Positions 10,151-63,240 are shown, counted from the first letter of the stretch. The stretch is DNA of 64,000 bases from Leucoraja ocellata (GCA_036785375.1 JAWMAR010001853.1:62001-126000); one strand, 5' to 3'. Notes: generated from the sequence alone by a model not told the origin. A program made the numbers and translations.

Positions 10151-10393
10151 ATTGTATACCTTTGAAGGTAATGAAGAATTTCCAGAAACATTGGCAAATC
10201 AAGAGGCTAGCAATTGGGTCCATTCTACAGTATTTTATGAAACCTCTTTATCAGGATTAAGGTTTCTTTCTTGTCATGTGCACAGAGATGCAGTGAAATG
10301 TTTCTTCTGCATGCTATCCATCAAAACACAATGTACTCAAGTACAAGAGATCTTCTTCTGCAACAGCACACAGCAAGTCATCATGTGAGAGAT

Positions 10394-10581
10394 TCAGCGA
10401 GACAGGCATCGTCTCTGGAGAGAAGGAATGGGTAACGTTTCGGGTCAAGACCCTTCTTCAGTCTCGACCCGAAATGTCACCCATTCCTTCTCTCCAGAGA
10501 TGCTGCCTGTCTCGCTGAGTTACTCCAGCATTTTGTGTCTATCTTCAGTTCAAATCAGCATCTGCAGTTCCTTCCTACACA
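10394..10581. mobile_element. Fold-back Penelope pseudo-LTR element with an intact hammerhead core on the minus strand (10434-10461)
   Basis: Inverted arms. The minus strand reads CTGAAGA A GGGT CTTG ACCC GAAA CGTT. Confidence 0.8.
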
Positions 10582-11222
10582 TCATGTTTGAGTCTGGTGG
10601 ATCCCACAAAGCATTTTGGCCATGTGCACAATACATTAAATTAACATTTATTGAATGGTGAATATTATTATTGTGGCATTTCCATCAATATTGAATGGTG
10701 GCCATCAGAGCTGTGATGCAACATATTTTTTTGAATAGACATACGCAGCCACACTGGATGAAGTCGTGTGTAACCAAGTGTGAAACTTACATGCACACAG
10801 GTACTTTGTACAGTACATTATATACTAACTTCATGTGACAAGATTTAAAAGACACACTTTCATTCATCTTTAATTCAATGGTCCAGACTTAGTCAAAATG
10901 GAGTGACACACTGCAGTATGACAGAGTGACTAGCCATGCAATTGGCAGCATGATAAAAATAAAGTGAATCCTTGGCATCCCATCTTCCACGCGATAAATA
11001 ATTGATTTGCTGCTTTTATTTCTCTGCTGTAAAATTGCTACTGTGTTATAAACCTAGACGGGATATGAATTTGTATAAGAACTGCTCAAAATGAATGTAA
11101 TGGCTGGATTGCACTGCACTACACAGCAGTGATTTGGTCAAATTACAACCAAACAGATATTTATGCAATTAAACAGTGCTGTGATTATTTGTTTTGTTTT
11201 TTTAATTCACTTTTCCTTTTTC

Positions 11223-11515: not shown

Positions 11516-12843
11516 TTTAATTTTCAGGATGTTGGTCTCACTTTTTTTTGTGAGACCAGTTATTAAGTTTTACACCACTTTACATGCGCGTTAAGATTGG
11601 AATCACATTCATGGCATCCAAAATAAAGGAAGCAGGTATAATTCTTTGAGATGGGCTTGGAGGTGCTCAGATGTTCCAAGGTCAGGGAGCCATCAGAACA
11701 GGTCAATGGCTGCAGCTCCAACAAGCTGGTCATGGAGAATGGCACGAGTTGTGATGTGTTGGCTTTAGTAAGATGGAGTTTGATGATAGCCTATCTATGT
11801 GGAGACTGAGCTAAAAGGTGAGCAAAGCAGATAAATGTAAAATCTTCCTAAAAGATGTAAGACCAAAGTTGAGCCAATGCACATGATAGTTGCAGGCCAA
11901 GGGGATGTAAAAAAGATCCAGTAATACCAAGCCTAAGGTTGTAGGAAATTCAAATGGCAGTAAATGGAAAGGTGATATTCCTAAATGTGGAGTTCTAGTG
12001 CCAGGTGGTAACAGCACCATGGAACGTGCCTTTTAGAAAATGTCTTAAACCAAGGGTTTTCAGGGTTGACTATTCAAGTGTCCACCAATAAGAATATGTT
12101 TACTTCAGTGCAGAGTAGCTTGCAAACAAATACTCTCAACACTGTCAGTGAGATGCACAGAAGAAGATATCCATGGAGGAAGTGTCTGCAGAGGCCACCT
12201 TGAGGTGCATAGTCAAAGTTTAGATGCGTTGCCTCGAGAGGCCAGATATGCAGTTCAGGGTGAGGTCCTTTAGGGGCATTTTGGCTAAGATTGGGACAAT
12301 GATCTTGGTATTTCTGAGTAATGTGAATATACGTCATCCTCAGTAGCTGGCAGTTCAAAAGTGGAAACTGTGATTTGCCCGGGTGACTCAAGGTTGTTTC
12401 ACCAAAGAGTTAGCACAATTGCCGTACTGTTGCGAGAATCCATTGTTGAAGTGGAAAGTGAGAAACATGACATGTGCGGTTGCAGTGAGTCATTCCTATC
12501 AAGTCAGATGTTGCCGCTGCAGTGAATCATGCGGCAAGAGTTTAGGAAATTGCACTGGGACTACCAGCCTGCTGTCACTCACACTTACTAAATGGGATGA
12601 ACACAAGCTCAGAGTTAGCTGGATGCCTGTAAGGCGAAATTTGTTGTGAAGGTAACTCAAGAGCTATGAAAATTCTGTGCCTGAAGCTTTGTTAAAAGGC
12701 CTCGACATACTAATGACAGGTAGTCTTTAAGAAGACAAAAAATAAAACATGCTATTGTTGAGTTTATGGATCTGGGGATACATTTGAAGCAATGTACAGT
12801 TGTAATTACTGAAGATGTCAGTGAATATTTTGGTCTGTATTAA

Positions 12844-12983
12844 AGGTAGGCAAAAATGCTGGAGAAACTCAACGGGTGAGGCAGCATCTAGATGTACATC
12901 TAGATGCTGCCTCACCCGCTGAGTTTCTCCAGCATTTTTGTCTACCTTTGATTTTTCCAACATCTGCAATTCTTTCTTAAACA
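12844..12983. mobile_element. Fold-back Penelope LTR mini-insertion with a 15-bp TSD
   Basis: TTTGGTCTGTATTAA at 12829-12843 and 12984-12998. Palindrome centred on ATCTAGATGTACATCTAGAT. Confidence 0.85.
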
Positions 12984-13139
12984 TTTGGTCTGTATTAAGC
13001 TCAATGGTTACAATTGGTTACAATAAATGTAACTATGAATTATGATTATGTGTCATCAGGAGAATAATTGTGAAGGAAGATGTACGATTAGTTATTTATG
13101 AACCCTCTTGAAAAGTTGATCTGTTGAAAATGTTTGGTA

Positions 13140-14445: not shown

Positions 14446-14580
14446 TGGAAGATTGCAACCTTCACGTGGTCCGCCCTGTTTCGACTAACGTAATCAACTC
14501 GATGTGCACAAACGGAAGATCAAATAGAACAAGTTGGCCTACAACTTTAGGCTGTGCAAGCCACACGAAAGAAGAAGAAG
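14446..14580 (+). mobile_element. Ribozyme-headed short retroelement, copy A (5' G-run missing)
   Basis: TGGAAGATTGCAACCTTCACGTGGTCCGCCCTGTTTCGACTAACGTAATC...CCACACGAAAGAAGAAGAAG. Same element as 15045-15185 and 16540-16675. Confidence 0.85.
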
Positions 14581-15044
14581 ACAGTGCAATCTGTGGTTAG
14601 ATTATAGGTCACACAGACAATTTCAGATTGGGGTGCTTTTGAAAACATACATCCTCCAAAAAAATCTACTTTGCACTTTGTGTCAATATGTATCCAGACT
14701 CCATATCCACAGATTTCATTAGTGGATGTGCCCACTTCTTCACAATCAGATTTGCAGAAGGGATGTAAGATCTGCTTTGTCATATGGACATTTGAACCAG
14801 CTTTGGGAAGGTCTACTTAAAAATACACTCTATGTGTAGCTGCTCTTCCTCAGTCCCCCACAAACTTCCTGTCCCTACAACGCTAACCCACCCTCAATCT
14901 CACTAGTGGATTGCAACACTGCCTGAGCCCATGACCTTTGCTTGAAGTTCTGATCCACCTCCAAAAGATGCTCTGCTAACACAGTTCTAATGAGTTGATA
15001 GTCCTCTCCAGAAACCTGATAAAAATCAGAGGGTCAGCTGATGT

Positions 15045-15185
15045 CTTCTACTTCTAGCGTATGGCGCGCACAGCCTAAAGTTGTAGGATAACTTGTTCTA
15101 TATGATCTTATTTGATTGTGCACGCCAGGTTGATTGCATTCGTTAAAACAGGGCAGACCATGTGAAGATTGCAATCTCCCACCCC
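15045..15185 (-). mobile_element. Ribozyme-headed short retroelement, copy B
   Basis: Starts GGGGTGGGAGATTGCA on the minus strand and has a GAA-type tail. Exact 11-bp TSD TCAGCTGATGT at 15034-15044 and 15186-15196. Confidence 0.9.
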
Positions 15186-15274
15186 TCAGCTGATGTTAAA
15201 GTCAGTGAAGCATGCGCTACAATGTAGTCACAGAGTTTGCAGATATTGGTTGCAGATATTTGCAGGACAGTTTT

Positions 15275-15595
15275 TTAGTTTAGTTTAGTTTAGAGACACA
15301 GCACGGAAACTTCGGCCCACCGAGTCCGCACCGACCAGCGATCCACGCACATTAACACTACCCTACACACACTAGGGACAATTTACACCTACACTAAGCC
15401 AATTAACCTACATACTGTACCTGTACGTCTTCGGAGTGTGGGCGGAAACTGAAGATATTGGAGAAAACCCACGTGGTCACGGGGAGAACGTACAAACTCT
15501 GTACAGACAGCACCCGTAGTCGGAATCGAACCCGGATCTCAGGCGCTGCAAGAACTGTAAGGCAGCAACTCTACTGTTGAGCTACCATGGCTGCT
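15275..15595 (-). mobile_element. tRNA-derived SINE (HE1-like)
   Basis: (TTTAG)n on the plus strand is the tail. Box B GGTTCGATTC on the minus strand at about 15523-15532. Confidence 0.9.
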
Positions 15596-16539
15596 CACAT
15601 TTGGTTCCAGTAAAACACCTTGTTCAGCAATATAAATTAATTCCTTCCTACAGAATATGTATTAATAAATAGTTAAACAATCCAGATTGTTATAAATATA
15701 ATTTTGATAGTGGTTAACAATGTCAAATGTTCAGCCACCGAGGAGCTGAACTGATTGAATAAATAACCTCCAAAGAACATTATCTGCATCATTCAAGCGT
15801 GGAAGCATTTTTTGTAAATATTCATGGCTTTGTGCTAATCAGGCAGGTGAATTTAATTTTTTAATATTCTTTGTCATTGAATAATTAGCATTCCGTGATT
15901 TCTCTAATTTATTTGCTTTCAACCCATATTATTTTTGCAATTATGTGGGCCAGTGGAATCCCTTCAACTTGTGGACCAGGTAACTCAAAGTTCCCCGTTG
16001 AACATCAGGACATGCTACTAAAATAGATGTGCTTACTTTGTGTTGTTTATAGTTTCTTGTGTAGGCCTATGATGTTTAGCTCCATTATTTCAGGCATCTC
16101 ATTCTATTCCATCTTCTTCCACAATTTCTCCAAAGTATCCAGCTCATTTGTGTTCAGCTCTCAACTCTGCTCAACTTTATATTTCCAATCAGAGCTAAAT
16201 CAACATCCACAACCCTCTCTTTTTATCCCTTCACTATTACTCTGGTAGTTTTTTCAAGCATTTATGATAGTCTCCTCCATTTTCTCATCCATATGGTGAC
16301 TCTTGGAGATCTCCAGAGACAAGCGATGAGTTTCAAAACTTAAGGGCCTGTCCCACTGCGGGGACCTAATTTGCGAGTGTAGAAGAGTTTAGGAGAGTAT
16401 GAAAAAGTATCGGTTGTGTTGTATCGCCGAAGTAGAACACCTCCTTCGACCTTCCTCAACTATGGAGAGAACCTCCTACGAATATGTTGAAGACCTCCTT
16501 CGACTATGTAGAAGACCTCGTTCGATCTTCGACTATGTT

Positions 16540-16675
16540 CTTCTTCTTTCGTGTGGCGTGCACAGCCTAAAGTTGTAGGACAACTTGTTCTATTTGATCT
16601 TCTGTGTGTGCACGTCGAGTTGATTGCATTAGTCGAAACAGGGCGGACCACGTGAAGGTTGCAATCTTCCACCCC
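16540..16675 (-). mobile_element. Ribozyme-headed short retroelement, copy C (best preserved)
   Basis: GGGGTGG start and ACACGAAAGAAGAAG tail. Flanked by TTCGACTATGTT (16528-16539, 16676-16687). Confidence 0.9.
16622..16675 (-). ncRNA. Predicted minimal HDV-like self-cleaving ribozyme (54 nt)
   Basis: P1 GGGGUGG/CCGCCCU (G1-U wobble), P2 GAUUGCA/UGCAAUC, P3 ACC/GGU, L3 UUCACGU, reduced P4 with a UUCG loop, J4/2 CUAA with the catalytic-position C. Folded by eye. Confidence 0.8.
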
Positions 16676-17781
16676 TTCGACTATGTTGAAGACGAGCTTC
16701 GACTAGCTTCGGGAAAATTGGACACCGAATATTGGAGAGTGAAGACTACCTTCATCTATATTAACGCTATCTGCGACTACCTTCGATTACATTTGACTAC
16801 CCTCGATTACCTTCGATTGCCTTTGATTACCTACGCATAACATGTCGACCTACTACGACCTACTTCGACTAACCCTATGAGTAAATAAAATATCGATTTT
16901 TTCCATGGCGACCTTTTTTTACTCGCAGACAATTTATGCTAAAATATTTTACTCGCTAAAATTTTACATGCTAAAAAAAACGCCTTGACAAAACTGAGGC
17001 CTCGAGTAAGCGGGGACTACTCTCGAGCATGAAGGAGAATTACAAAGACCTCCTAGGTCCTCGTGTCGACCATGCTGCGAGTATGAGTCGAGGGCAAACT
17101 CTTCTAAACTTGCCAATTAGGTCCTCGCAATATAGGACAGGCCCTTTAAGCAGACAAACAGCACAAACTTTCTACCAACTCAGTGAATTCCTCCATTGTC
17201 TCTGTGATGTTAACCAATGCAGCCTTAGATAAGCCACAATTTCATGATCCAAACAGTTAAGCAATGGGAATTGTAAAATCAAACCACAAACTCCTCATCT
17301 TGAGTTCTCATCCTTCTCCATCATCACAGTCCCACATTACTAACAGCTAAGATCCTTTGTTCATTCCAAAAGTGGTGCAATCAGCATTACAAAAAAACAC
17401 TGAATTGGTAACGTTGCTCTTAATTTACTCCTCAGCCTGTTGAAACTCTCCACACAGAGTTGTCTTCTCTAAACGCATACATTTTAGTGTTCTCCTGGGT
17501 AATTTTCAGATCTAGCTTTCTAAATTTTGCTGCCAGTAACTTAATCCTTAATCCAGGCGTGGTTTGGAGGATACCACTTGTATCCTTGCGATAGATAGTT
17601 AGGTGTGGCTTTAAAGCCCACTCCTGAAGTGGCAGTACAAGGCTGACACAACATTGAAGTTCAGAGAGTGTGCAACAATATTATAGATGCTTTTCTTGCA
17701 ATGAATAGTTAAGGTAACCTACATCTGTTCTCTTAGCTGTATTTAAATTGGCTGTAAAACACAAAGTGCTGGGGGTACTTA

Positions 17782-18708
17782 ATGTTTAAGAACGAACTGC
17801 AGATGCTGGAAAATCAAAGGTAGACAAAAATGCTGGAGAAACTCAACGGGTGAGGCAGCTTCTATGGAGCGAAGGAAATAGGCAACGTTTCGGGTCGTGA
17901 CCCTTCTTCAGACTGATGTGAGGGTGGGAGGGGGGCGGGGGGGGCGGGAAGAAGAAAGGAAGAGGCAGAGACAGTGGGCTGATGAAGAGCTGGAAAGTGG
18001 AGGAGAAAGCAGGGATTACCTGAAATTAGAGAAGTCAATGGTCATACTGCTGAGGTGTAAACTGCCCAAGCAAAATATGAGTTGCTGCTCAATTTACGCT
18101 GGGCTTCACTCTGGCCATGGAGGAGGCCCAGGACAGAAAGGTCGGATTCGGATTGGGCGGGGGAGTTGAAGTGCTGAGCTACCGGGAGATCAGGTTGGTT
18201 ATTGCGAACCGAGCGGAGGTGTTGAGCGAAGCGATCGCCAAGCCTACACTTGGTTTCACCGATGTAGAGCAACTGACACCTAGAGCATCGGATGCAATAG
18301 ATGAGGTTGGAGGAGGTGCAGGTGAACCTCTGTCGCACCTGGAAAGACTTCAATGCAGTCAAGGGGGGGGGAGGTAAAGCGACAAGTGCAGCATTTCCTG
18401 CGGTTGCAAGGGAAAGTGCCAGTAAGGGGGGTGGTTTGGATGGGAAGGGATAAATTGACCAGGGAGTTACGGAGGGAGCGGTCTCTGTGGAAAGCAGACA
18501 GGGGAGGAGATGGGAAGATGTGGCCAGTGGTGGGATCCCGTTGGAGGTGGCGAAAATGTCGGAGGATTATTTGTTGTATGTGACGGCTGGTGGGGTGGAA
18601 GGTGAGGACAAGGGCGATTCTGCCCTTGTTAAGAGTGGGGGGATGGAGAGTGAGAGCAGAGTTACGGGGCATAGAAGACACCCTGGTGAGAGCCTCGTCT
18701 ATAGTAGA
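17782..18708 (-). mobile_element. Penelope-like element (Neptune/Poseidon type), 3' half with GIY-YIG endonuclease and pseudo-LTR
   Basis: ORF 18042-18362 (NLIYCIRCSRCQLLYIGETKCRLGDRFAQH...PVAQHFN) and ORF 18280-18714 (RT C-terminal linker with a CxxxxCxxC motif). LTR at 17782-17915. Confidence 0.92.
17884..17911 (-). ncRNA. Minimal type-I hammerhead ribozyme core in the Penelope LTR
   Basis: The minus strand reads CUGAAGA-A-GGGU-CACG-ACCC-GAAA-CGUU. Helix III is the palindromic ACGU, as known for PLE hammerheads. Confidence 0.75.
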
Positions 18709-19672: not shown

Positions 19673-20247
19673 AGATTTCCTATGTTGTAACATTTTTATG
19701 ATGATATGTAATGGTTCGTAATTCTAACATGGTGGGGTCCAGCAAACAAATTTGTGCTGAGCTTCTTTTCGAAGACAAGGCAAAAATGAAGAAAGAGCAG
19801 TACAAAAAAACCATCAGATATAAAAGATTAGATCTGAAGGTGAAATCTGCCATTAAATCCAGTTCCTCTAAAAATACATCAGATGCAGTTACACATAAAG
19901 ACAAAAAGAGCCTTGACCACAGTCCATGACTTCTCATAACCTCTTGTCCTGTTACTGCCATTGCAGCAACATAACGGAAATATATTTTGTAGTCTTGGGC
20001 CAAGTGACAAGAACATTGAGGACAATGCTATACTGTTTTAGTTGCATGACTTTCTTTCTCTGATAAAATGCAGTGCTATTTTCTGATGGTATGCACTGAT
20101 GCTGTGTACTTCGAAAATGTGCAGAGCTCAATTTTCAAATTTCTCACATTTTTAATATTACAAAAAGATCACTCAAGTTTAAAATTTAAAAAAAAAGTAA
20201 TTAAATGAGGAGGTCAGGTTCTTAAATAGCTTATGCTTATAGGACGA

Positions 20248-20475
20248 AGATAGATACAAAAAAGCTGGAGTAACTCAGTGGGTCAGACAGCATCTCTGGA
20301 GAAAAGGATTTGGAGACGTATTAGGTCGAGACTCTTCTTCAGTCTGAAGAAGGGTCTTGCCCCGAAACATCACCTATTCCTTTCCTCCAGAGATGTTGTC
20401 TGACCCGTTGAGTTACTCCAAGCTTTTTGTGCCTATCTTCAGTTTAAACCAGCATCTGCAGTTCCTTCCTGCACA
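20248..20475. mobile_element. Fold-back Penelope LTR element with two back-to-back hammerhead motifs
   Basis: Centre reads TCTTCAG-T-CTGAAGA. TSD GCTTATAGGACGA at 20235-20247 and 20480-20492. Confidence 0.85.
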
Positions 20476-21070
20476 TTAAGCTTATAGGACGATGATTTGC
20501 CAGAAACATCAACAGCAAGGAATGATATGCACTGATAATATGTACAGCAGAAATAAATCATCGTAATTTACTGCTTCAATGCTGGAATTTTATGTAGGAA
20601 TTATTTGTTGCTTGTTAAGGTTATCTGGAAAAGTTCTGGCAGGAAAGTGGGAACTTATTTTTGAATTGAGCTGTATTTTACATTCACAACCAGAAGAGGT
20701 ATTGGCTGCAGAGCAAGGCTCTCAAAATACAGGGACATATTGAGGGCAATTTCCTTACAGACGCTTCCTTGTCACTTCTTTTTGACAGAAATATTCTATG
20801 GCTTTTTTCACTTTTGATCTTCTGAACACGAACCATGTCCCTCTTTATAGCATTTTATTGGCCACTTAATTTTGAAGGGCAGCCTTCTGAGATGGTGGGT
20901 GCCAATTCTGGTCAGTTTATTGAGGGTTTTACAACACTGCCATGTGACTATAGGTGAAGTGTGCCTTTTAAATAATGCACAATATGAGCTTTAGCATTCT
21001 TAGGGTCATTTCTTTGTGTGTGACTGAATGCTACCAGCAGTGATTCAGACTAGTAAGGATGAAAGTACAA

Positions 21071-27270: not shown

Positions 27271-27485
27271 GTGGTACACAAAAATGCTGGAGAATCTCAG
27301 CGGGTGCAGCAGCATCTATGGAGCGAAGGAAATAGGCAAAGTTTTGGGCCAAAACCCTTCTTCAGGCTTTCGGGTCGAAACATTGCCTATTTCCTTCGCT
27401 CCATAGATGCTGCTGCACCCGCTGAGTTTCTCCAGCATTTTTGTGTACCTTCGATTTTCCAGCATCTGCAGTTCCTTCTTGAACA
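27271..27485. mobile_element. Fold-back Penelope LTR element
   Basis: Long inverted arms. Flanking repeat GAACATTACCTG at 27259-27270 and 27481-27492. Confidence 0.8.
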
Positions 27486-27939
27486 TTACCTGATCAGGTT
27501 ACCAACACCACATGTAAGCAGAATGATTAATCACCTCTCAGGAATTTCAGTCTCCTGCCAGTAACCCTCCAGATTTTCCCAGGGCCTTTGGAGAGTTATC
27601 TTGAGAGACTTAAGTTCCTAAGTTGTTATTTTCCTCAGATATTGAGGTGATTTCAATGTATCTTGGATTCGAGAGTCCTGGGATTGCTCCCCTGGACCAA
27701 TTTGTAAATAAAATTCAATTGACCATGTTGCAAGTATCCATGCATTGTTGAACTTTATTATTACACCAGGATGTGAAGTAAGACAGGAATGCCTTGGATT
27801 AATCACGTCTGGAGATGCCACAATCATCAGTTGATTGAAGTGTTGATGGAGATTTAATTAATTATAGGAGAGATCTGGAATCTGCCTAAGTTTGAATTGG
27901 AGACTCAGTTAATTTACAAAAGATACTCGACTCCGGGCC

Positions 27940-36709: not shown

Positions 36710-36933
36710 CGGCACCGTGGCACAGTGGTAAAGTTGCTGTCTTACAGGTCAAGAGACCCGGGTTTGATCCTGACTTTGGTGCTGTCTGTACGGAGTTTGT
36801 ACATTTTCCCTGTGACTACATGGGTTTTCTCCAGGTGCTCCAGTTTCCTCCCACACTCAAATAACGTACAGATTTGTTGGTTAATTGGCTTTGGTACAAA
36901 TTGTAAATCGGCCCAAGAGTGTAGGATAGTGCT
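36710..36933 (+). mobile_element. tRNA-derived SINE interrupted by the Vingi LINE (resumes 40012-40082)
   Basis: Head ggcaccgtggcacagtggt. The body breaks at gtaggatagtgct and resumes atagtgctagcatacggggatcgctggtc...ctgtttctgcgctgtatctc. Confidence 0.85.
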
Positions 36934-39900
36934 TCTTTTTTCGTGTCCTTATGCTTTATAGTGGCTCGCCACTGCTGTACACATCGTTGTGCTATTGGAG
37001 TGTTAAGTGCAAGGTCTGCAGGAGTACATGGATTATCCAGCAATGGGCATTGCAGTAGGTGTTGCATTGTCTGGGTCTGCCACAGTCACAGGTTGTTGTA
37101 CTCTCGATGTAGCCCCATTCGTGCATTGTCACCCTTGACCGGCCGACCCCGGTTTGCAGTCGGTTGAGACATCTTCAGTTCAGCCTGGTGGTAAGCGTCT
37201 GCTGCTGGTATGCCTATCTTGGTGGAAATAGGGACAGTGGCTAGTCTGTTCTTCCACATCTGGAAGCGAGCTTCAGTTGGTTGTGTTTCCAATGGTGGTG
37301 ACACCGGTTAGGAAGCTCTTACGGGATTTTAACCGCTTTGAAGGGGGCACATGGTTGTGCAATGGGAGTCTATCGTCTGTCAGTTGTTTCAGACGCTCTG
37401 TCCTACTTGCAGCAACTCTCCTGATGTCTGGGGGAGCGATGCCAGCCAGTAGGTAGATGTTGTTTATGTCCGTAGATCGGTGGCAACCGGTAATGCTATG
37501 GCAGCTGGCATTCATGGATGTCGATTTTCTTTGCATGTGAAGATCTCTCCCAAGCAGGGCAGGCGTATTCTGCAGCAGAGAGGCAGAATGCTAAGGCTGT
37601 AGTACATACTGTGGTTGCGTTAGCACCCCATTTGGTGGTGGTGAGCTTGTTCAATATGTTGTCGCGGGTGCCCACCTTTGCTTTAATTTTTTCCACATGT
37701 GCCTTGAATGCTAAGCAGTGATCGAGTATGACTCCAAGGTGGACTGGGTTTGGGCAATGTGTTAGTGGGAGTCCAGGCCATGTGACGTGTAGTTGATGGC
37801 TAGCCTCTTGGTTCCTCAGGTGGAATGCACAGATCTGTGTTGTCGATGGGTTGGCACGCAGCTGGTTTTCCTTATAATATGAAGATAAACTGGTGAGTGC
37901 CTCTGTTAGCGTTGTCTCAACATCTTGGAACTGTGTACCCAGTGCTGTTATATAGAGATCATCAGCATAGATGAAAAGCTTGGTTACCAAGTCAGTTAGC
38001 TGATTATTGGTGTAGATGTTGTACAGGGTTGGTGCCAGGACACTTCCTTGAGGGAGGCCGTTCTTCTGTCGTCGCCATCTGCTACGTTTCCCTTCTTTCT
38101 CGCCAAAGAACCTTCGATTTTGGAGCATCGTTTGTATTCGCTCGGTTAGATGCAGATCTTTTGTCATTTCAAGGATCTTGTAGAGGAGTCGTTTGTGGTT
38201 GATAGTGTCGTATGCTGCTGACAAATCGACAAACACTGCTCCCGTGATTTGCCCTTGTTCGAAGTCATGTTCGATATGTTGCATTAGGGTGAGGAGCTGG
38301 CTTGTTGTGGACTTGCCTGGGTGGAATCCTGCCTGTTCTGATATTAGATGTTCATCTACATATGGAGCCAGGCAGTTGAGGATGAGTCTCTCAAATAGTT
38401 TGTAGGTGTGGCAGAGTAGAGAAATAGGTCTATAACTTTGTCTCTGATGGGTCCTTCCCTGGCTTCAGTAGTGCGATTTCTCAATTCTGGCACCAAAGCT
38501 TTGGGATTGTCAGATTGGTGGAGCATGAGTTGTAGAAATTTAGAAGCCACTCTCGTGTCTGTGGTCCAAAGTGCTTGATTTGCTCAGTGGATATGTCATC
38601 GATCCCTACTGCTTTTCCATCTTTAAGAGTTGCGATGCGGGCCTCTAGCTCTTCTGTTGTGAGTGGTTTTATGAAGACTGGGTATCCTGCGTATTTAGTG
38701 CGATCTAGTTTTTGCTTCCTGGTGGACGGTGGCTTTGCCATTCAGTAGTAGCTGATGTGCAATTTGGTTGGCTGCGATGTTGCAGTGTTGTTCTGCCTAC
38801 TTGTGGTCATTACTGAGTTTACGGATGAGGGACCATGCCTTTTTGCTGCTATTTGTCATGTCAGTCGACCCCAACAGGTTCTGCCATGATTTGCTATGTT
38901 CGGCGGCGATGGCTGACATCAGCTGTTCTCCTGTGACAGTAGTCTCATCGGCAAATGGATCAGCTTGGAATTGCTTCTTGTATTGCTCATACAGTGCTGC
39001 ACTCTCTGGTGTGAGGCCAGGGATGTAGTTTGTGCAGCAATCACGTGGGATGTTCTTTCTAGACGTATCTTTGACCAGTTGGACAAAGCTGCTGTAGGCT
39101 TCTGCTGATGGCTCTAGTGATGATACTGCTGCATCCAGACCCTCTGTGAAGCGTTTCCAATCAGCCTTTTTGCAGTTAAAGCATCGTCAAAATGGGGCTG
39201 TGGTGGGAGTGACTGTTGCTCTGACTTGGATACCGATTGAGCGGTGTTGTGTCTTCGGTATTGGATCTAGCACGATCTTGTTACATAGTCTCATGATGTT
39301 TTCGCTGACAAATGCGAGGTCTGGGTTGTATCCCCGTTTCCATCAGCCACTATTGAATGAGCTAGGCCGTTTTGCGTCATGGAGCAAACTAATTTTGTTA
39401 GTTTCCACCCATTCTTCTACGGATACTCCATCTGCGTTGGTCTCGTTGTAGCCCCATTGTGTGCTGTGGCTGTTGAAATCGCCAATTATCACCCGTGGTT
39501 TGTTTTGGGGATTGTCTTGTGGGTCTCTAAACTTAAAGGCAGTGTCTGGTGGTTTGTAGACTGATGTGATGATAACATTACTGAGTTCGAGAGTTATAGG
39601 ATGTTATCCTCTTCAGACTTTGCGGTGGTATTGATGTCTATGCCATCCTTAATAAAGATTGCACGACCATATTTCTCAGGGGCGTCTCGATTGCCATGGT
39701 CGTTGCTGGGATCTGGGGACGGTTGTGCTGGGGAACTGGTGTGTTTCTTGCAGACACAAGACATCACATTGGATATCTTTGCAGATACTTGCAATTAGAG
39801 TTTGTTTCGCAGTAGAAAAGCCTTGCATGTTCACAGATATGACAGTCAGTGCCGGTCTTGAAAAAGACCCATGTTGGTGACACTGACTAATATCTTGAAC

Positions 39901-40006
39901 CATGTGAGAGCGCTAATAGCACTAAGGTGGTAGTAGAATTAGCAAGTTACATGTAGCATACATGCAACTTGACAGGGGCCGCGACGTGAACGCTTCTACT
40001 ATGACC
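36934..40006 (-). mobile_element. Full-length (~3.07 kb) Vingi/Ingi-clade LINE, single EN-RT ORF, now frameshifted
   Basis: EN start at 39903 (..TVISVN..DVLCLQETH). RT DLSAAYDT, NGLPQGSVLAPTLYNIY, IYADDL. SAAEYACPAW, LAGIAPPDIRR, and a C-terminal CDC..QTMQHLLQCP knuckle. No ORF1 or RNase H. TSD ATAGTGCT at 36926-36933 and 40012-40019. Confidence 0.88.
39931..40006 (-). ncRNA. Predicted HDV-like ribozyme at the 5' end of the Vingi LINE
   Basis: P1 (..GGUC)/GGCCCCU, P2 UAGUAGAA/UUCUACUA, P3 GCG/CGC, L3 UUCACGU, P4 CAAGUUGCAUGU/ACAUGUAACUUG, J4/2 CUAA. The first ~3 nt of P1 are lost. Confidence 0.8.
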
Positions 40007-40164: not shown

Positions 40165-40272
40165 AACTACTGAAGCTAGAAGAAGAGTCTCAACCCTGAA
40201 ACGTCACTCATTCCTTCTCTCCAGAGATGCTGCCTGTCCTGCTAAGTTACTCCAGCATTTTGTGTCTATCTC
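40165..40272 (+). mobile_element. Penelope pseudo-LTR fragment
   Basis: gaagaagagtctcaaccctgaaacgtcactcattccttctctccagagatgctgcc. Confidence 0.7.
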
Positions 40273-44170: not shown

Positions 44171-45563
44171 ACGGTAGTACGGGCGGCTCAGTGCCGTGAG
44201 CACTGCACCGCGCTTTGGAGCACCGCAGGCCAACGGCACTACAGGGGACTCAGTGACCGTGAGCACTGCAACACGTTGACACTGCGGGACCTGCACCTGC
44301 GAGAACATACCGCGTTTGCAGCGATGCAGGTCCAAAAAAAAAGAAGAACAAATCCTCGAGTGGGTAAGTCCCATAGCAGCACCTTATACAGGGCTGTATC
44401 TCACTTCTACTATTACAGGGAAGTGCTGGAGGAAAAGACAGACTTAGGGAGAAGTGAGCAGCACCTTTTCTTAGGGCTATAATCATGCTTCTCTCCCTCC
44501 AGTAGACTCTTTTGTCAGAAGAGTGCTGGGGTCTAGTCTAGGGCAAACCCTGGACAGGTAAACAGATGTAAGAGCTGTAATAATGAGGTAATGCTTTTTC
44601 TAAGTCACAAAGTACATAGAGTGCATTATTGGTCTTTTCCTGATAGAAATACAGGAATACTTATGTTATGACTGAAGGATTTAGCAGTCCAAAAATTTAC
44701 TGACAAATTCCATTCCCATCTGGGAAGTCACATGGGAATGTCTGTCTATGTTTCAGGGGGAACAACAGTACAGCTGTAAGTAAAGCTAACTGGGAAAGAT
44801 CTACAAACCAGGTTAGAAGCCAGCATAGACCATATGTTTTCTATCTACTGCAGGGGCAAACATTAGCTGACACCATAGTGGCCACTTGCCACTGGGGATT
44901 GTAAATCCCTGAATGTACTAAACTAATCAATTTATGCATCTGGTTACATCCAACCGGGATTGACACGGGCCTGTGTAAACCCGAAACCTCCTAGCAATAT
45001 CTTTTTATTTGGAGGTGATCGATCTAGAAGGTCAAGCAGTTGGACAATGAAGCCAAATTGGAGCTCATCTAAACGTCCAAACATCATCCTCAAAGGTATC
45101 GCCCCTCTATCTGAAGATGTGTACACCCACAACACACGGCCTCGGGGATCCAGATGAAAACAGTAAAATCAGAAGGAAGCAAGGAGGTTGGTGCGAGAAG
45201 ACATCGAATAAATAATTTTTTGACACTCATATCTTAAACAGTAGCCGGGGATACACAATAGAATTTTACAACACATAATCTTCTAGTCCAGCTGATATAT
45301 CGAGAGAGGAATTTGGAGGAGAACACCAAATGGATATTGGGCTATAGTATTTGCTGATGTTTCTACACGATATGGAACACCAGATGCCGATCTACTCGTA
45401 TCCAGACATAATCACCAATAACCAAATATGTCATATGGGATACAGACACTGGACATCAGCAACGGATGGGTTTTAGCTGCATTGTAAGGGAAGAATTATT
45501 ATCTACGCATTCCCTTCCTAACAAAATAGGATATGGCGCTTGACGCCTCAAACATAGATCAGA

Positions 45564-45654
45564 TCTCGGCTTTTTGCCAAGATCAAGCATAATATCTGGG
45601 GTTTTATCAGTTTAAATATCTGATATGTCCCTTATCTAGGGACCATATATTAAA
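45564..45654 (+). pseudogene. RNU2: U2 snRNA 5' fragment (about nt 7-95) with an A-rich tail
   Basis: TCTCGGCTTTTTGCCAAGATCAAGCATAATATCTG..TTTTATCAGTTTAAATATCTGATATGTCCCTTATCTAGGGACCATATATTAAA aligns to vertebrate U2. It ends before the Sm site and is followed by AATAAATAAATAAAATAAT. Confidence 0.88.
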
Positions 45655-48300
45655 AATAAATAAATAAAATAATACGATATATTCGTTAAGAACGGAAACC
45701 TTTTCTATTGTTAAGTATATTCGTTTTAAGAACGAAAATGGCAAGCATTGATTCAAAGGATGCTTACTATTTTCAGTACCCATAACAGGTGACCACGGAC
45801 GTTATTTTATCTAATTGGATGGCTCAGCTCTAGCAGTATAGAGCACTACCTAATGTGTTTACATTAGCACCTAGGTTATTTACAAAATATAACAACCAGC
45901 CACACAATGGTAATGGCTTCTTTGGATGACATACTAATTGTGCGGGAACTTAGGACGGGCTGAACAAACGGTAACAGCCACTTAACAATTATTTGGAAAC
46001 TAGGATTCATTATCCATCCAATTAAATCAAAATGAAAGCCTTCAAACTAAAGGGATTATTTGGGTTTCACCAATAACTCAGTTCCTCATGTCAGTAACTT
46101 TGCCAACAGAGGTTACAACCTTAATAAAGGCATACAGCAAAATCATTGACATGAGGATAAACCATACATCAGACTGGTAGCAAGAATTTTGGCAACAGGT
46201 GGTACTGGGAATATGGGTTCCAGCCACATAATTCAGACTCTTACATTATAAAGATTTACAGAGGGCCAAAATATGAGCTCTTAAAATTAATGGTGTTCAT
46301 TTCGATAGAATGATGAAGCCATACAGAAGCCATATTGGAACTAAATGGTGGAAAGATAACATTGGGCATTGCTCCAATCCTATCATTGTCAGAAACCTGT
46401 CTATGGTCCTACATATGCATGCTATGCACTAGGATGGTGTGTTACCAATTCCATCTCCAGCTGTGGAGGAAGATGGAATACACAGGAAGCATCATTATTA
46501 CTAACACTGGGCATAACTACCTGGAAATGTTGGGTGTTTTTCATGGCCTAAAGTCATGTTGCTCTGGAATATGTTAAACAGGTTATTAGATTATAAATTA
46601 ACAATACTACTGTGGTAGCACATATCAACGGTGGTAGCACATGGGTGAAAGGGAATCTACATCATGTAACAATCTGGCCAACACAATTTGGCAACCTCAT
46701 CAGTAGGAGTGTTTTAATAGTACCCCACTGACCTACCCAACCATGGTTCTCGGTGGTACTGGGAATGAGATTAGAACCATGCAGCACCATCCTAAACAGA
46801 CGATGAAGTATGGGGAAAACCACCCGTGCCATGAACATATAAATCGCTTAAATCGTAGAGTCTGAAAGCGCCGCTATTACATCTGGGACTGACGGCCAGA
46901 GCAATGGACATGATCACAGCGGGCCACAGACAATCAACCTAAAGACAATGTCTAAAATTATTAGTGACATCAACTGTGCCAGAAGTGGTCCATCTACTTA
47001 CCTATGGCAAGAGAACGGAACAACAGCTTATGGGGGACACTTTTATGGGAATTCCCCAAAGACCGGATATGCCCAAATATGGGACATCAGCATCGTCTTA
47101 ACGTTGTTAAAGAACTGGGCTCCAGCCACAGCGCTGTCATTACAGTTTTTGACTTTTTACAAAACTGTCATGCTGATGGCTTAGGTCACGGCACTAAGGA
47201 CTCAGTCCCTACCAAATTAAGGCTGGATAACTAGACCAGTTCACCTGGCAACTTACACTTCTATATTCAAGAATTAGGGAACTAAACAGACAGGGGTCAG
47301 CGGGCCTTAAAATAACATATTTAGCGGGCCTTAAAATAACAATTTAGAGCCTACCCTACAGATGATTGACTGTGTTGTGAGACATCTACAAATATACATG
47401 GAACAAACCAAGACCATCAGTGGCACAGAAGAGGAACTTTTCATCAACTACAGACAGCCTCATTAAAGAATAACAGGCCAGGCCAGCTAAATGGCTAACA
47501 TAGTATTGACCAAAGTTGGTGTAAACACTAACTGGGTTAAAATCTCACTCCACCAGGCTGCAGCAACGTCGGCAGCATTTAAATTGGAGGTTCCTATGGA
47601 TAAAATCCTCAGGACTGCAGGATGGCCATCGGAAAGAACATTCTAAAGATTATAACAAACCAGTAATGGAAACTGGAATTTTTCAGAAACATTGTTAAGT
47701 TTCTATACCATAATTTACCCCAAAAAACAGGGGCTATCAATTATTATTAACTTTATGGTTATTTATATATATCATATTGATGTTTAATATGTTATCACTA
47801 TTCTCCCCAAAACCAAGGCAGACGTGATGATGGACTCGTTCCACGGCTTGAATCACAGAGCTTTGAAATCTTCATGTAGTCACTCACGTGACTCCGAAGT
47901 AAAATAGTAAGATTAAACGAGAACTTACCAGTTCGAAGTTTGATCTGTATTTTATGAGGAGTAACGTTGAGGGAATACATGCCCTCTGCTCCCACCCTTG
48001 ATCATAAACACGACTGGTATCTTTTCTCTAATCTTACTATGCTTAAGTCATTACAGGTATCTGTGATTCACTCCGCTGCTTTGAAGAATGACACGCGTGC
48101 GTACTGGCGGGTTCTTCATGTATTCCCTCAACGTTACTCCTCATAAAATACAGATCAAACTTCGAACTGGTAAGTTCTCGTTTAATCTTACTATTCTTCA
48201 TAGAAATCAAAGAAACCATGGTTAAACTTGATTTTGTCACCAAGAAGTGCATAAACATAGAAGGAAGAAAGCAGTCACCTATCAAAATTATGAACGTATC

Positions 48301-62485: not shown

Positions 62486-63240
62486 GGCCGGCGGCGGGAG
62501 CGGATGTCGGGGTCTGGGCGAACGGGTGTGAGCTGAGGCTGAGGTTTGTAAACGTTGCTCCAACCCCCGGCCCGGCCCTCCCTGTATTATTCACTGCGTC
62601 TCCCCGGGGCGAGAGAGAGAGGGGTGTAGCCGGGGCTGTGTGCGTGAAGCACGGCGACTGCAGGGGCGGGTGCGTGGCCCCGGGACCGTGAGGGATTGTC
62701 CGCCTCCCGCTCTCCATTCCCCCTCACACCCCCTCCCCTTCTACCCCTTTCTTCCCCCTCCACCCCTCTCTCCCCCCTGCACCCGGGATAGATCTACCTG
62801 AGCCGAGAGTAGATTACTCTGGCGCGGGGCCGCCTTGGGTGTGGAGTCTGAGGGGAGAAGCGCCGGCACCAAGAGCGAGCGAACGCGCGGACAGACGGAC
62901 GATAGCAACGAACATAGCGCGGAATAGGTAACATTTCGGGTCGAGACCCTTCTTCAGACTGACAGTCAATGGAAAGGGAAACGGGAGGTATAGGCATATC
63001 TTCCATTCATTTGTTCTTAGTACCGTCTATATAGTTCCTCTTTCCCCTGACAGTCTGAAGAAGGGTCTCGACACGAAATATCATCTATTCCGCTCGGTGA
63101 TCGTTGCTTTCGTCCGTCTGTCCGCTCGTCCTTGGATTAAGTAGCGCAGGATAAAAGCTGCGAATTCACGCACAGGATGGAAACCGAGAAGTTGAGGGGC
63201 GCCGTCCTCCAGCGTATCCCCCCCCCCCCCCCTCCTGTTT
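62486..63240. promoter_or_regulatory. CpG-island-like region, possible promoter or first exon
   Basis: Dense CpG against a CpG-depleted background, GC boxes (GGGGCGGG about 62663, GGCGCGGGGC about 62821), possible donor ACC|GTGAGG at 62688. Confidence 0.45.
62868..63135. mobile_element. Inverted-repeat Penelope-type element with a hammerhead motif in each arm
   Basis: Arms about 62868-62965 and 63045-63135. Cores CTGAAGAAGGGTCTCGACCCGAAATGTT (-, 62930-62957) and CTGAAGAAGGGTCTCGACACGAAATATC (+, 63055-63082). Confidence 0.8.

Follow-up and report, generated by a model that had tools for sequence, protein, structure and literature searches.

A short retroelement of the skate Leucoraja ocellata with a predicted P4-less HDV-like ribozyme head, derived by internal deletion from a Vingi-like LINE

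Short element copies in the window and in the genome

The window, a 64-kb stretch of the Leucoraja ocellata genome, contains three copies of a short element, located at positions 14446 to 14580 (plus strand; copy A), 15045 to 15185 (minus strand; copy B), and 16540 to 16675 (minus strand; copy C), where an earlier inspection of the DNA alone (here, the sequence-only reading) had placed them. The remaining matches to the element in the window were at most 24 nucleotides (nt) long, with E values of 0.08 or higher. Copy C is 94.8% identical to copy A and 85.0% identical to copy B, and there are full-length copies elsewhere that are 98% to 99% identical to it. Copies B and C share the first G as their start and are flanked by exact target duplications of 11 bp (B) and 12 bp (C), and GAA-type tails are present on all three copies, all of this in agreement with the sequence-only reading. 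Copy C is a full-length member of the young subfamily and the sole window copy with an intact ribozyme core. Its 12-bp duplication (downstream, 16528 to 16539, minus strand; upstream counterpart, 16676 to 16687) sits within a locally repetitive target. Copy B, also full length, is a decayed member of the older subfamily (G25A in L3), with its 11-bp duplications at 15186 to 15196 and 15034 to 15044. Copy A belongs to the young subfamily. Its first 4 nt, and with them most of the P1 5' strand, are missing, and its P2 3' strand has two changes; no convincing target duplication was found for it, the best candidate being 8 nt with 1 mismatch.

Several other repeats were identified in the window. 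A decayed, near-full-length LINE with APE and RT regions and its own HDV-like head, belonging to a sister family here designated V1, occupies positions 36933 to 40006 (minus strand) and has an ~8-bp target duplication. The region of the window occurs twice in the assembly (G000:C9:3.11-3.14 Mb); around copies B and C and around the LINE, the flanking sequence is the same in both. A tRNA-type SINE whose B box is perfect is abundant, with copies at 15281 to 15600 (minus strand) and near 2354, 9040, 19390, 36730, 42440, and 56850. A common palindromic (MITE-like) repeat, found at 10389 to 10582, 12839 to 12985, 17780 to 17925, 20246 to 20480, 27273 to 27488, 40179 to 40271, and 62883 to 63129, is the source of spurious Rfam miRNA matches in the window. 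A 3'-truncated U2 snRNA copy (45558 to 45665, plus strand; 57 bits) is probably a retro-pseudogene.

Genome-wide, a 24-nt head motif gave 11,167 matches with at most one mismatch in the 3.44-Gb assembly, and the reversed control gave none; the assembly includes duplicated regions or haplotypes (e.g., L001/L004 and L182/L184), so that insertions are fewer than these raw counts. A DNA search with the 64-nt head, by a method that skips very common words, returned no match. Two subfamilies are defined by exact tail motifs (924 and 3,556 matches). From each, the first 30 loci were sampled by the tail only and 4 duplicates were dropped, which left 26 and 26 loci. The uniform 5' end anticipated by the sequence-only reading was observed in 44 of these 52 distinct loci (23/26 and 21/26), which begin at the same G1. 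Target duplications of 10 to 16 bp, with one mismatch allowed, flank 41 of the 44 full-length loci (20/23 and 21/21), and mismatched-flank controls gave 2/506 and 5/420. None of 30 loci picked by the head continued into an ORF. The element is 133 to 135 nt long plus the tail, has no coding capacity, and spreads as a unit with duplications. Its characterization as a nonautonomous retroelement with a footprint of target-primed reverse transcription (TPRT), whose first base is also that of an HDV-like head, was borne out.

Words of the element were found in runs from nine organism labels (24 runs, all consisting of contigs, with the RNA status guessed for most), and in two further public runs, 29 and 61 contigs turn to unrelated flank exactly at the position corresponding to 16675; the public runs examined are contigs, which are unable to show RNA starts. 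In 35 of the 44 full-length loci (among L222 to L281), G1 is preceded by C or T, which probably reflects a nicking preference of the endonuclease. Variants were also seen. At L115 to L120 (G000:C1:19.26-19.43 Mb), a copy lies within an ~2-kb tandem repeat unit, and at L092:1490-1570, a deletion variant of ~80 nt, barely more than ribozyme plus tail, has a 12-bp duplication. L196 is a copy of the parent LINE (see below) shortened to ~870 nt, and L245 and L276 are likewise listed as deletion variants.

Predicted fold of the head

The sequence-only reading had proposed that the first 54 nt of the element form a complete HDV-type nested double pseudoknot. In copy C, this stretch (16622 to 16675, minus strand) matches such a fold without any stem mismatch, as judged with a descriptor comprising a 7-bp P1 with first G, P2, a 3-bp P3, a 7-nt L3, P1.1, and a J4/2 beginning with C. 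On the minus strand, P1 is formed by 16669 to 16675 with 16640 to 16646 (7 bp, G-U at base 1), P2 by 16660 to 16666 with 16622 to 16628 (7 bp), and P3 by 16657 to 16659 with 16647 to 16649 (3 bp). L3 comprises the 7 nt at 16650 to 16656, and P1.1 (16638 to 16639), with the G after P1, has one standard pair. A 5-nt loop (16633 to 16637) replaces P4 and is followed by the four bases of J4/2 (16629 to 16632), with the catalytic-position C at 16632. The proposal held for copy C only, as copies A and B lack a complete core. Copy B departs from the descriptor at G25 in L3, and a change of the G25A type has been reported to impair a Caenorhabditis briggsae ribozyme (PMC13635239). The stems of copy B still pair, which had been offered as support for the fold; its differences from copy C are, apart from two subfamily letters, five decay-type transitions (C18T, G25A, C31T, C41T, and G42A), and they represent decay, not covariation.

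In the window, the descriptor matched at 16675 (copy C) and nowhere else, and 300 simulated windows of 64 kb gave no match; the descriptor was composed with the element already in view, and this figure is therefore a measure of rarity, not an unbiased P value. Nested folding programs did not pick out the head fold (z scores, -1.2 to +0.5), as folding of this kind cannot form pseudoknots. An Rfam scan of the element gave no match at an E value of 5 or lower. The distance between P1.1 and J4/2 is 5 nt in both the short element and its parent, i.e., P4 is absent, versus 25 to 29 nt in V1 and in a second LINE family, V2. The catalytic-position C is the first base of J4/2 in all five heads compared, in 21 of 21 young copies, and in 18 of 21 old copies.

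Stems P1 to P3 are identical in the majority sequences of the two short subfamilies, with no compensatory change between them, and covariation can therefore come only from other LINE families. The covariation expected by the sequence-only reading was found there, as swapped stem pairs across sister LINE families, and not between the short subfamilies. V2 begins at the G1 of its own ribozyme, with the layout of the short element and different stems. Over eight heads, 93.8% of the P1 and P3 cells are paired (slid controls, 41% to 58%), and 5 of the 10 pairs are changed on both sides; P2 has 7 of 7 pairs in each of five heads, with three different sequences. Pair counting covered P1 and P3 in the eight heads and P2 in the five. 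The eight heads represent about three related lineages, so that significance is overstated by the shuffles, and for two of the five measures, the heads did not exceed them (354/500 and 67/500). The heads of families V3 (L205, L209, L214, and L216) and V4 (L128) were excluded from the eight-head count for their imperfect P2. They fail the descriptor, while P1, P3, L3, and P1.1 can be seen by eye, and appear to be HDV-like heads of another type, with a two-pair P1.1 and a very short P4.

Cleavage may instead have been lost in the short family, with the fold persisting as an inherited relic or serving only as a protective 5' cap that binds protein. This would also fit a P1.1 with one standard pair, the loss of P4, and the lack of compensatory change between the short subfamilies, and some well-folded SIDER heads are described as inactive in vitro (PMC4035085). 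We consider such a loss of function very unlikely. The majority sequences of both short subfamilies keep every core position while adjacent letters (nt 8, 45, 58 to 59, and the tail) differ, and cleavage in vitro is described both for P4-less HDV-like ribozymes (10.1101/2023.06.13.544163) and for those with a nonstandard P1.1 pair, which is no bar to fast cleavage (PMC13635239). As modeled here, the head of the short element is a P4-less HDV-like ribozyme with predicted cleavage.

Parent LINE, end pairing, and drivers

A pattern combining the head with the start of an endonuclease had 10 matches, in one of which (L145) the same head leads into an APE frame; the other nine were rejected as short copies with chance flanks. 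A search with L145 yielded 73 candidates, of which 40 were scored, and 21 regions were examined. Four copies of a parent LINE, at two independent loci (L182/L184 and L183/L185), have both ends shared with the short element, APE and RT regions in between, and target duplications, and several more parent 5' ends run into the same ORF. The parent is an APE-plus-RT LINE of ~2.8 to 3 kb (uninterrupted locus, 2.77 kb), collinear in pieces with residues 12 to 906 of a 939-amino-acid (aa) APE-plus-RT protein of Anolis. Nucleotides 1 to 79 of copy C (16597 to 16675, minus strand) derive from the parent 5' end, with 69/79 and 70/79 identities to L183 and L185 and 66/78 to 70/79 over the four parent copies (about 88%). 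Nucleotides 93 to 136 (16540 to 16583, minus strand) derive from the parent 3' end and comprise its last codons, the stop codon (16567 to 16569), the 3' untranslated region, and the GAA tail (identities to parent copies, 37/42, 39/42, and 33/36; in the old subfamily, 36/37 to 42/43; 88% to 98% over the last 36 to 44 nt). The junction of ~13 nt is the short element's own and is partly a small duplication. The genome contains 194 parent 3' ends, versus the 11,167 head matches of the short element.

The short element is therefore a short internally deleted element (SIDE) of a Vingi-like LINE. The name of the parent clade rests on architecture and on one Anolis match (P0054, not labeled Vingi) and is best kept as Vingi-like: a compact single ORF with APE followed by RT and no RNase H, as in the Vingi description (PMC13708176), is what the parent appears to have. 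Pfam scans covered sister frames and proteins, the parent frame being broken, and RNase H was found neither in four sister-LINE frames nor in the best 120 of 1,052 V2 matches. The LINE in the window, V1, was rejected as the parent, having only the last 16 nt in common with the element (with its young subfamily), and V2, V3, and V4 were ruled out likewise.

The sequence-only reading had seen the head as a substitute for a tRNA in an independently built SINE. This was not upheld, since the head, down to its minimal P4, comes from the 5' end of the parent LINE; the further proposal that the element is copied by a LINE gained support from the discovery of this LINE, which shares both the P4-less head and the 3' end. 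Independent assembly, with the head taken from a tRNA or other polymerase III gene and the tail borrowed from a LINE, would suit a short, noncoding, LINE-tailed element with a weak B-box look-alike at nt 37 (3 mismatches of 11), but it is extremely improbable, because the LINE that supplies the tail also has a 5' end 88% identical to the head. Chimeric parent loci are unlikely, since the two loci are independent and flanked by duplications, and several more 5' ends lead into the same ORF. The absence of polymerase III boxes had been noted correctly. Scored against consensus sequences of the boxes, the closest A-box match in the element carries 2 mismatches and is found no earlier than nt 84, and the closest 11-nt B-box match carries 3, while both boxes were recovered in the tRNA-type SINE at 15291 to 15600, used as a positive control (1 and 0 mismatches). 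A head with A and B boxes, as in tRNA-derived SINEs (SINE2), is thus lacking.

In copy C, a 5'-derived arm (16607 to 16616) can pair with a 3'-derived arm (16555 to 16564; both on the minus strand), as seen by folding and in a duplex test on full-length LINEs. The same two arms are ~2.7 to 3 kb apart in the parent. The bases directly after the ribozyme thus pair with those directly before the tail, with 10 of 10 pairs in the old short subfamily. In full-length LINEs, the contiguous end pairs number 8 (parent L183/L185), 9 (V2), and about 11 (V1), and the sequence differs in each. End pairing held in three of four LINE families in the duplex test, and it was found neither in V3 nor at the decayed parent locus L182/L184. 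In the LINEs that have it, 1 to 49 of ~600 to 800 internal windows pair equally well with the 5' arm, and the parent stem is in part a 6-nt palindrome.

The reading that we regard as highly likely is that a Vingi-like LINE derivative, made of the first ~79 and last ~44 nt with an ~13-nt join, has its 5' end cut by the ribozyme and is mobilized by a LINE protein in trans. An intact copy would be transcribed as part of a host RNA or from its own head. The 54-nt HDV-like ribozyme, with a fold supported by the descriptor and by covariation, would then cut 5' of G1, remain on the RNA, and so fix its 5' end. The ~10-bp stem between the LINE-derived arms may offer the terminal motif and GAA tail to the LINE protein, and a Vingi-type APE/RT protein would nick the DNA and reverse-transcribe the RNA in trans, leaving the 10- to 16-bp duplications that are observed.

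Templates as short as 135 nt are usually copied to the end, so that uniform 5' ends are equally expected from a fixed transcription start. The 5' end could accordingly be set by an internal polymerase II promoter in the head, with the ribozyme secondary or alongside, as in Pr77 of L1Tc and NARTc, where 77 nt are described as both internal promoter and ribozyme (PMC4035085; PMC8256844). Vingi is placed as the sister clade of Ingi (PMC13708176), and the short element retains ~79 nt of the parent 5' end, 25 beyond what the ribozyme needs. However, the end-pairing arm accounts for these extra 25 nt, and the heads of different families are alike in structure, not in sequence, which suits an RNA fold over a DNA motif. 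A dual promoter and ribozyme role is compatible with the ribozyme-cut 5' end and competes with it only as a promoter acting alone. We regard the promoter explanation as unlikely.

The two short subfamilies differ in age. Divergence from the majority is 2.9% in the young and 6.2% in the old subfamily (n = 21 each), in samples biased towards intact copies. Parent copies are 71% to 93% identical pairwise (mean, 84.8%) and have no long open LINE frame; V2 is young, its copies being 96.6% identical, with open frames of 546 to 805 aa. The old subfamily keeps the parent tail, and its divergence is about that of the parent. In the young subfamily, two tail changes produce the V1 terminal motif and nearly the V2 motif, and by eye, the tail with both changes occurred in none of 100 parent 3' ends listed of 194. 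On balance, these changes favor a switch of the young subfamily to another LINE as its driver; it probably outlasted the decayed parent and was driven by V2. The proteins of the parent and V2 types are 31% to 44% identical, a wide gap for cross-mobilization.

Known systems and the CPEB3 ribozyme

Ribozyme-headed derivatives formed by internal deletion are known from R2 and L1Tc/ingi elements, and the skate element is an unusually stripped-down version of this design. The R2 SIDEs and R2/R1 hybrid SIDEs of Drosophila are likewise described as joining a 5' HDV-like ribozyme to a LINE 3' end by internal deletion and as using TPRT in trans, with the driver of the hybrids following the 3' end (PMC3414825). 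R2 SIDEs are site specific in ribosomal DNA and rare, with an RLE-type driver (PMC3414825), whereas the skate element is dispersed (~11,000 head matches), with an APE-type parent and a 54-nt P4-less ribozyme. NARTc, RIME, and SIDER are, similarly, short derivatives of APE-type L1Tc/ingi that combine an ~77-nt HDV-like ribozyme at the 5' end with the 3' end; in contrast to the skate element, for which cleavage is predicted, the trypanosomatid parent carries RNase H and a ribozyme with a P4 helix, with promoter activity and cleavage demonstrated (PMC4035085). The Vingi-1_EE derivatives are also bipartite and ORF-less; they combine the 5' end with the 3' end of a LINE that is compact, has a single ORF, and lacks RNase H (PMC5786205). 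With respect to the fold, drz-Mtgn-1 and the theta ribozymes share a short loop in place of P4 and a catalytic C first in J4/2; theta and minimal ribozymes are described from metagenomes and from gut phages, beside tRNAs (10.1101/2023.06.13.544163), while the skate ribozyme sits on a eukaryotic retrotransposon. Some SINEs are described as using HDV-like ribozymes in diverse metazoans (PMC6765202).

Our literature search returned no description of this family or of a Vingi-type ribozyme, which may have been published under Ingi or RTE names, and no P4-less HDV-like ribozyme in a eukaryotic retroelement. It also returned no pairing between the two ends of a LINE, no such driver switch, and no LINE heads scoring as CPEB3. 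Ribozymes from sea urchin, lancelet, and lamprey were reportedly described by Kojima (2011), Ruminski (2011), Webb (2009), and Webb and Luptak (2011), going by the summaries of others. Sea urchin and lancelet are among the named protein relatives of V2, so that ribozymes of this clade may have been published before as Ingi or RTE.

The element represents a 135-nt natural minimum of the cis signals needed by a Vingi-type protein. Such minimal signals are relevant because Vingi-1 is employed for RNA-only gene insertion, with templates flanked by UTRs (PMC13708176). The element also provides a natural test of LINE-SINE partner switching and places a predicted P4-less HDV-like ribozyme, a class whose origin and role are called undetermined in its description (10.1101/2023.06.13.544163), in a eukaryotic genome of 3.4 Gb, where it occurs thousands of times.

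The sister elements and a second short family, not the three window copies, resemble the CPEB3 ribozyme. The head of V1 in the window scored 50.1 bits with the Rfam CPEB3 model (RF00622; gathering cutoff, 35), and 6 of 20 head sources exceeded 35 bits. All six are sister heads, with a best score of 64.2 bits and scores of 50 to 64 for V1 and V2 heads (L139, L292, L293, L295, and L283). The heads of the short element (none at an E value of 1 or lower), the parent, and V3 gave no match to RF00622, and V4 scored 22.6 bits; since heads of the same fold score 22.6 bits or nothing, the model reads sequence and not the fold alone. In the best sister-head alignment, read by eye, 45 of 53 core positions equal the RF00622 consensus, and the stem differences are compensatory or wobble. 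The CPEB3 ribozyme shares with the short element L3 and a single-pair P1.1 (RF00622; PMC8233481); unlike CPEB3, which is described as single-copy, intronic, and conserved (PMC8233481), the short element has other stems and no P4.

The CPEB3 ribozyme is reportedly absent outside mammals. Its deeper ancestry could not be reconstructed for lack of an outgroup (PMC8233481). The LINE heads are a candidate outgroup and origin for it. Judged from the alignments, descent of the CPEB3 ribozyme from a LINE head seems somewhat more probable than the alternative that the likeness is convergence under functional constraint. Rather more tentatively, Vingi-type LINEs may combine a self-cut HDV-like 5' end with an arm that pairs with the 3' end, a module that mini-elements would keep while switching driver by two tail letters, and the CPEB3 ribozyme may be a domesticated 5' end of this kind.

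The second short ribozyme-headed family (L287, L288, and L286; G000:C28, C104, and C15) consists of elements of ~180 to 210 nt with a GAA tail. Its P2, P3, and L3 equal the CPEB3 consensus, L288 scored 40.3 bits, and related heads occur at L289 to L291.
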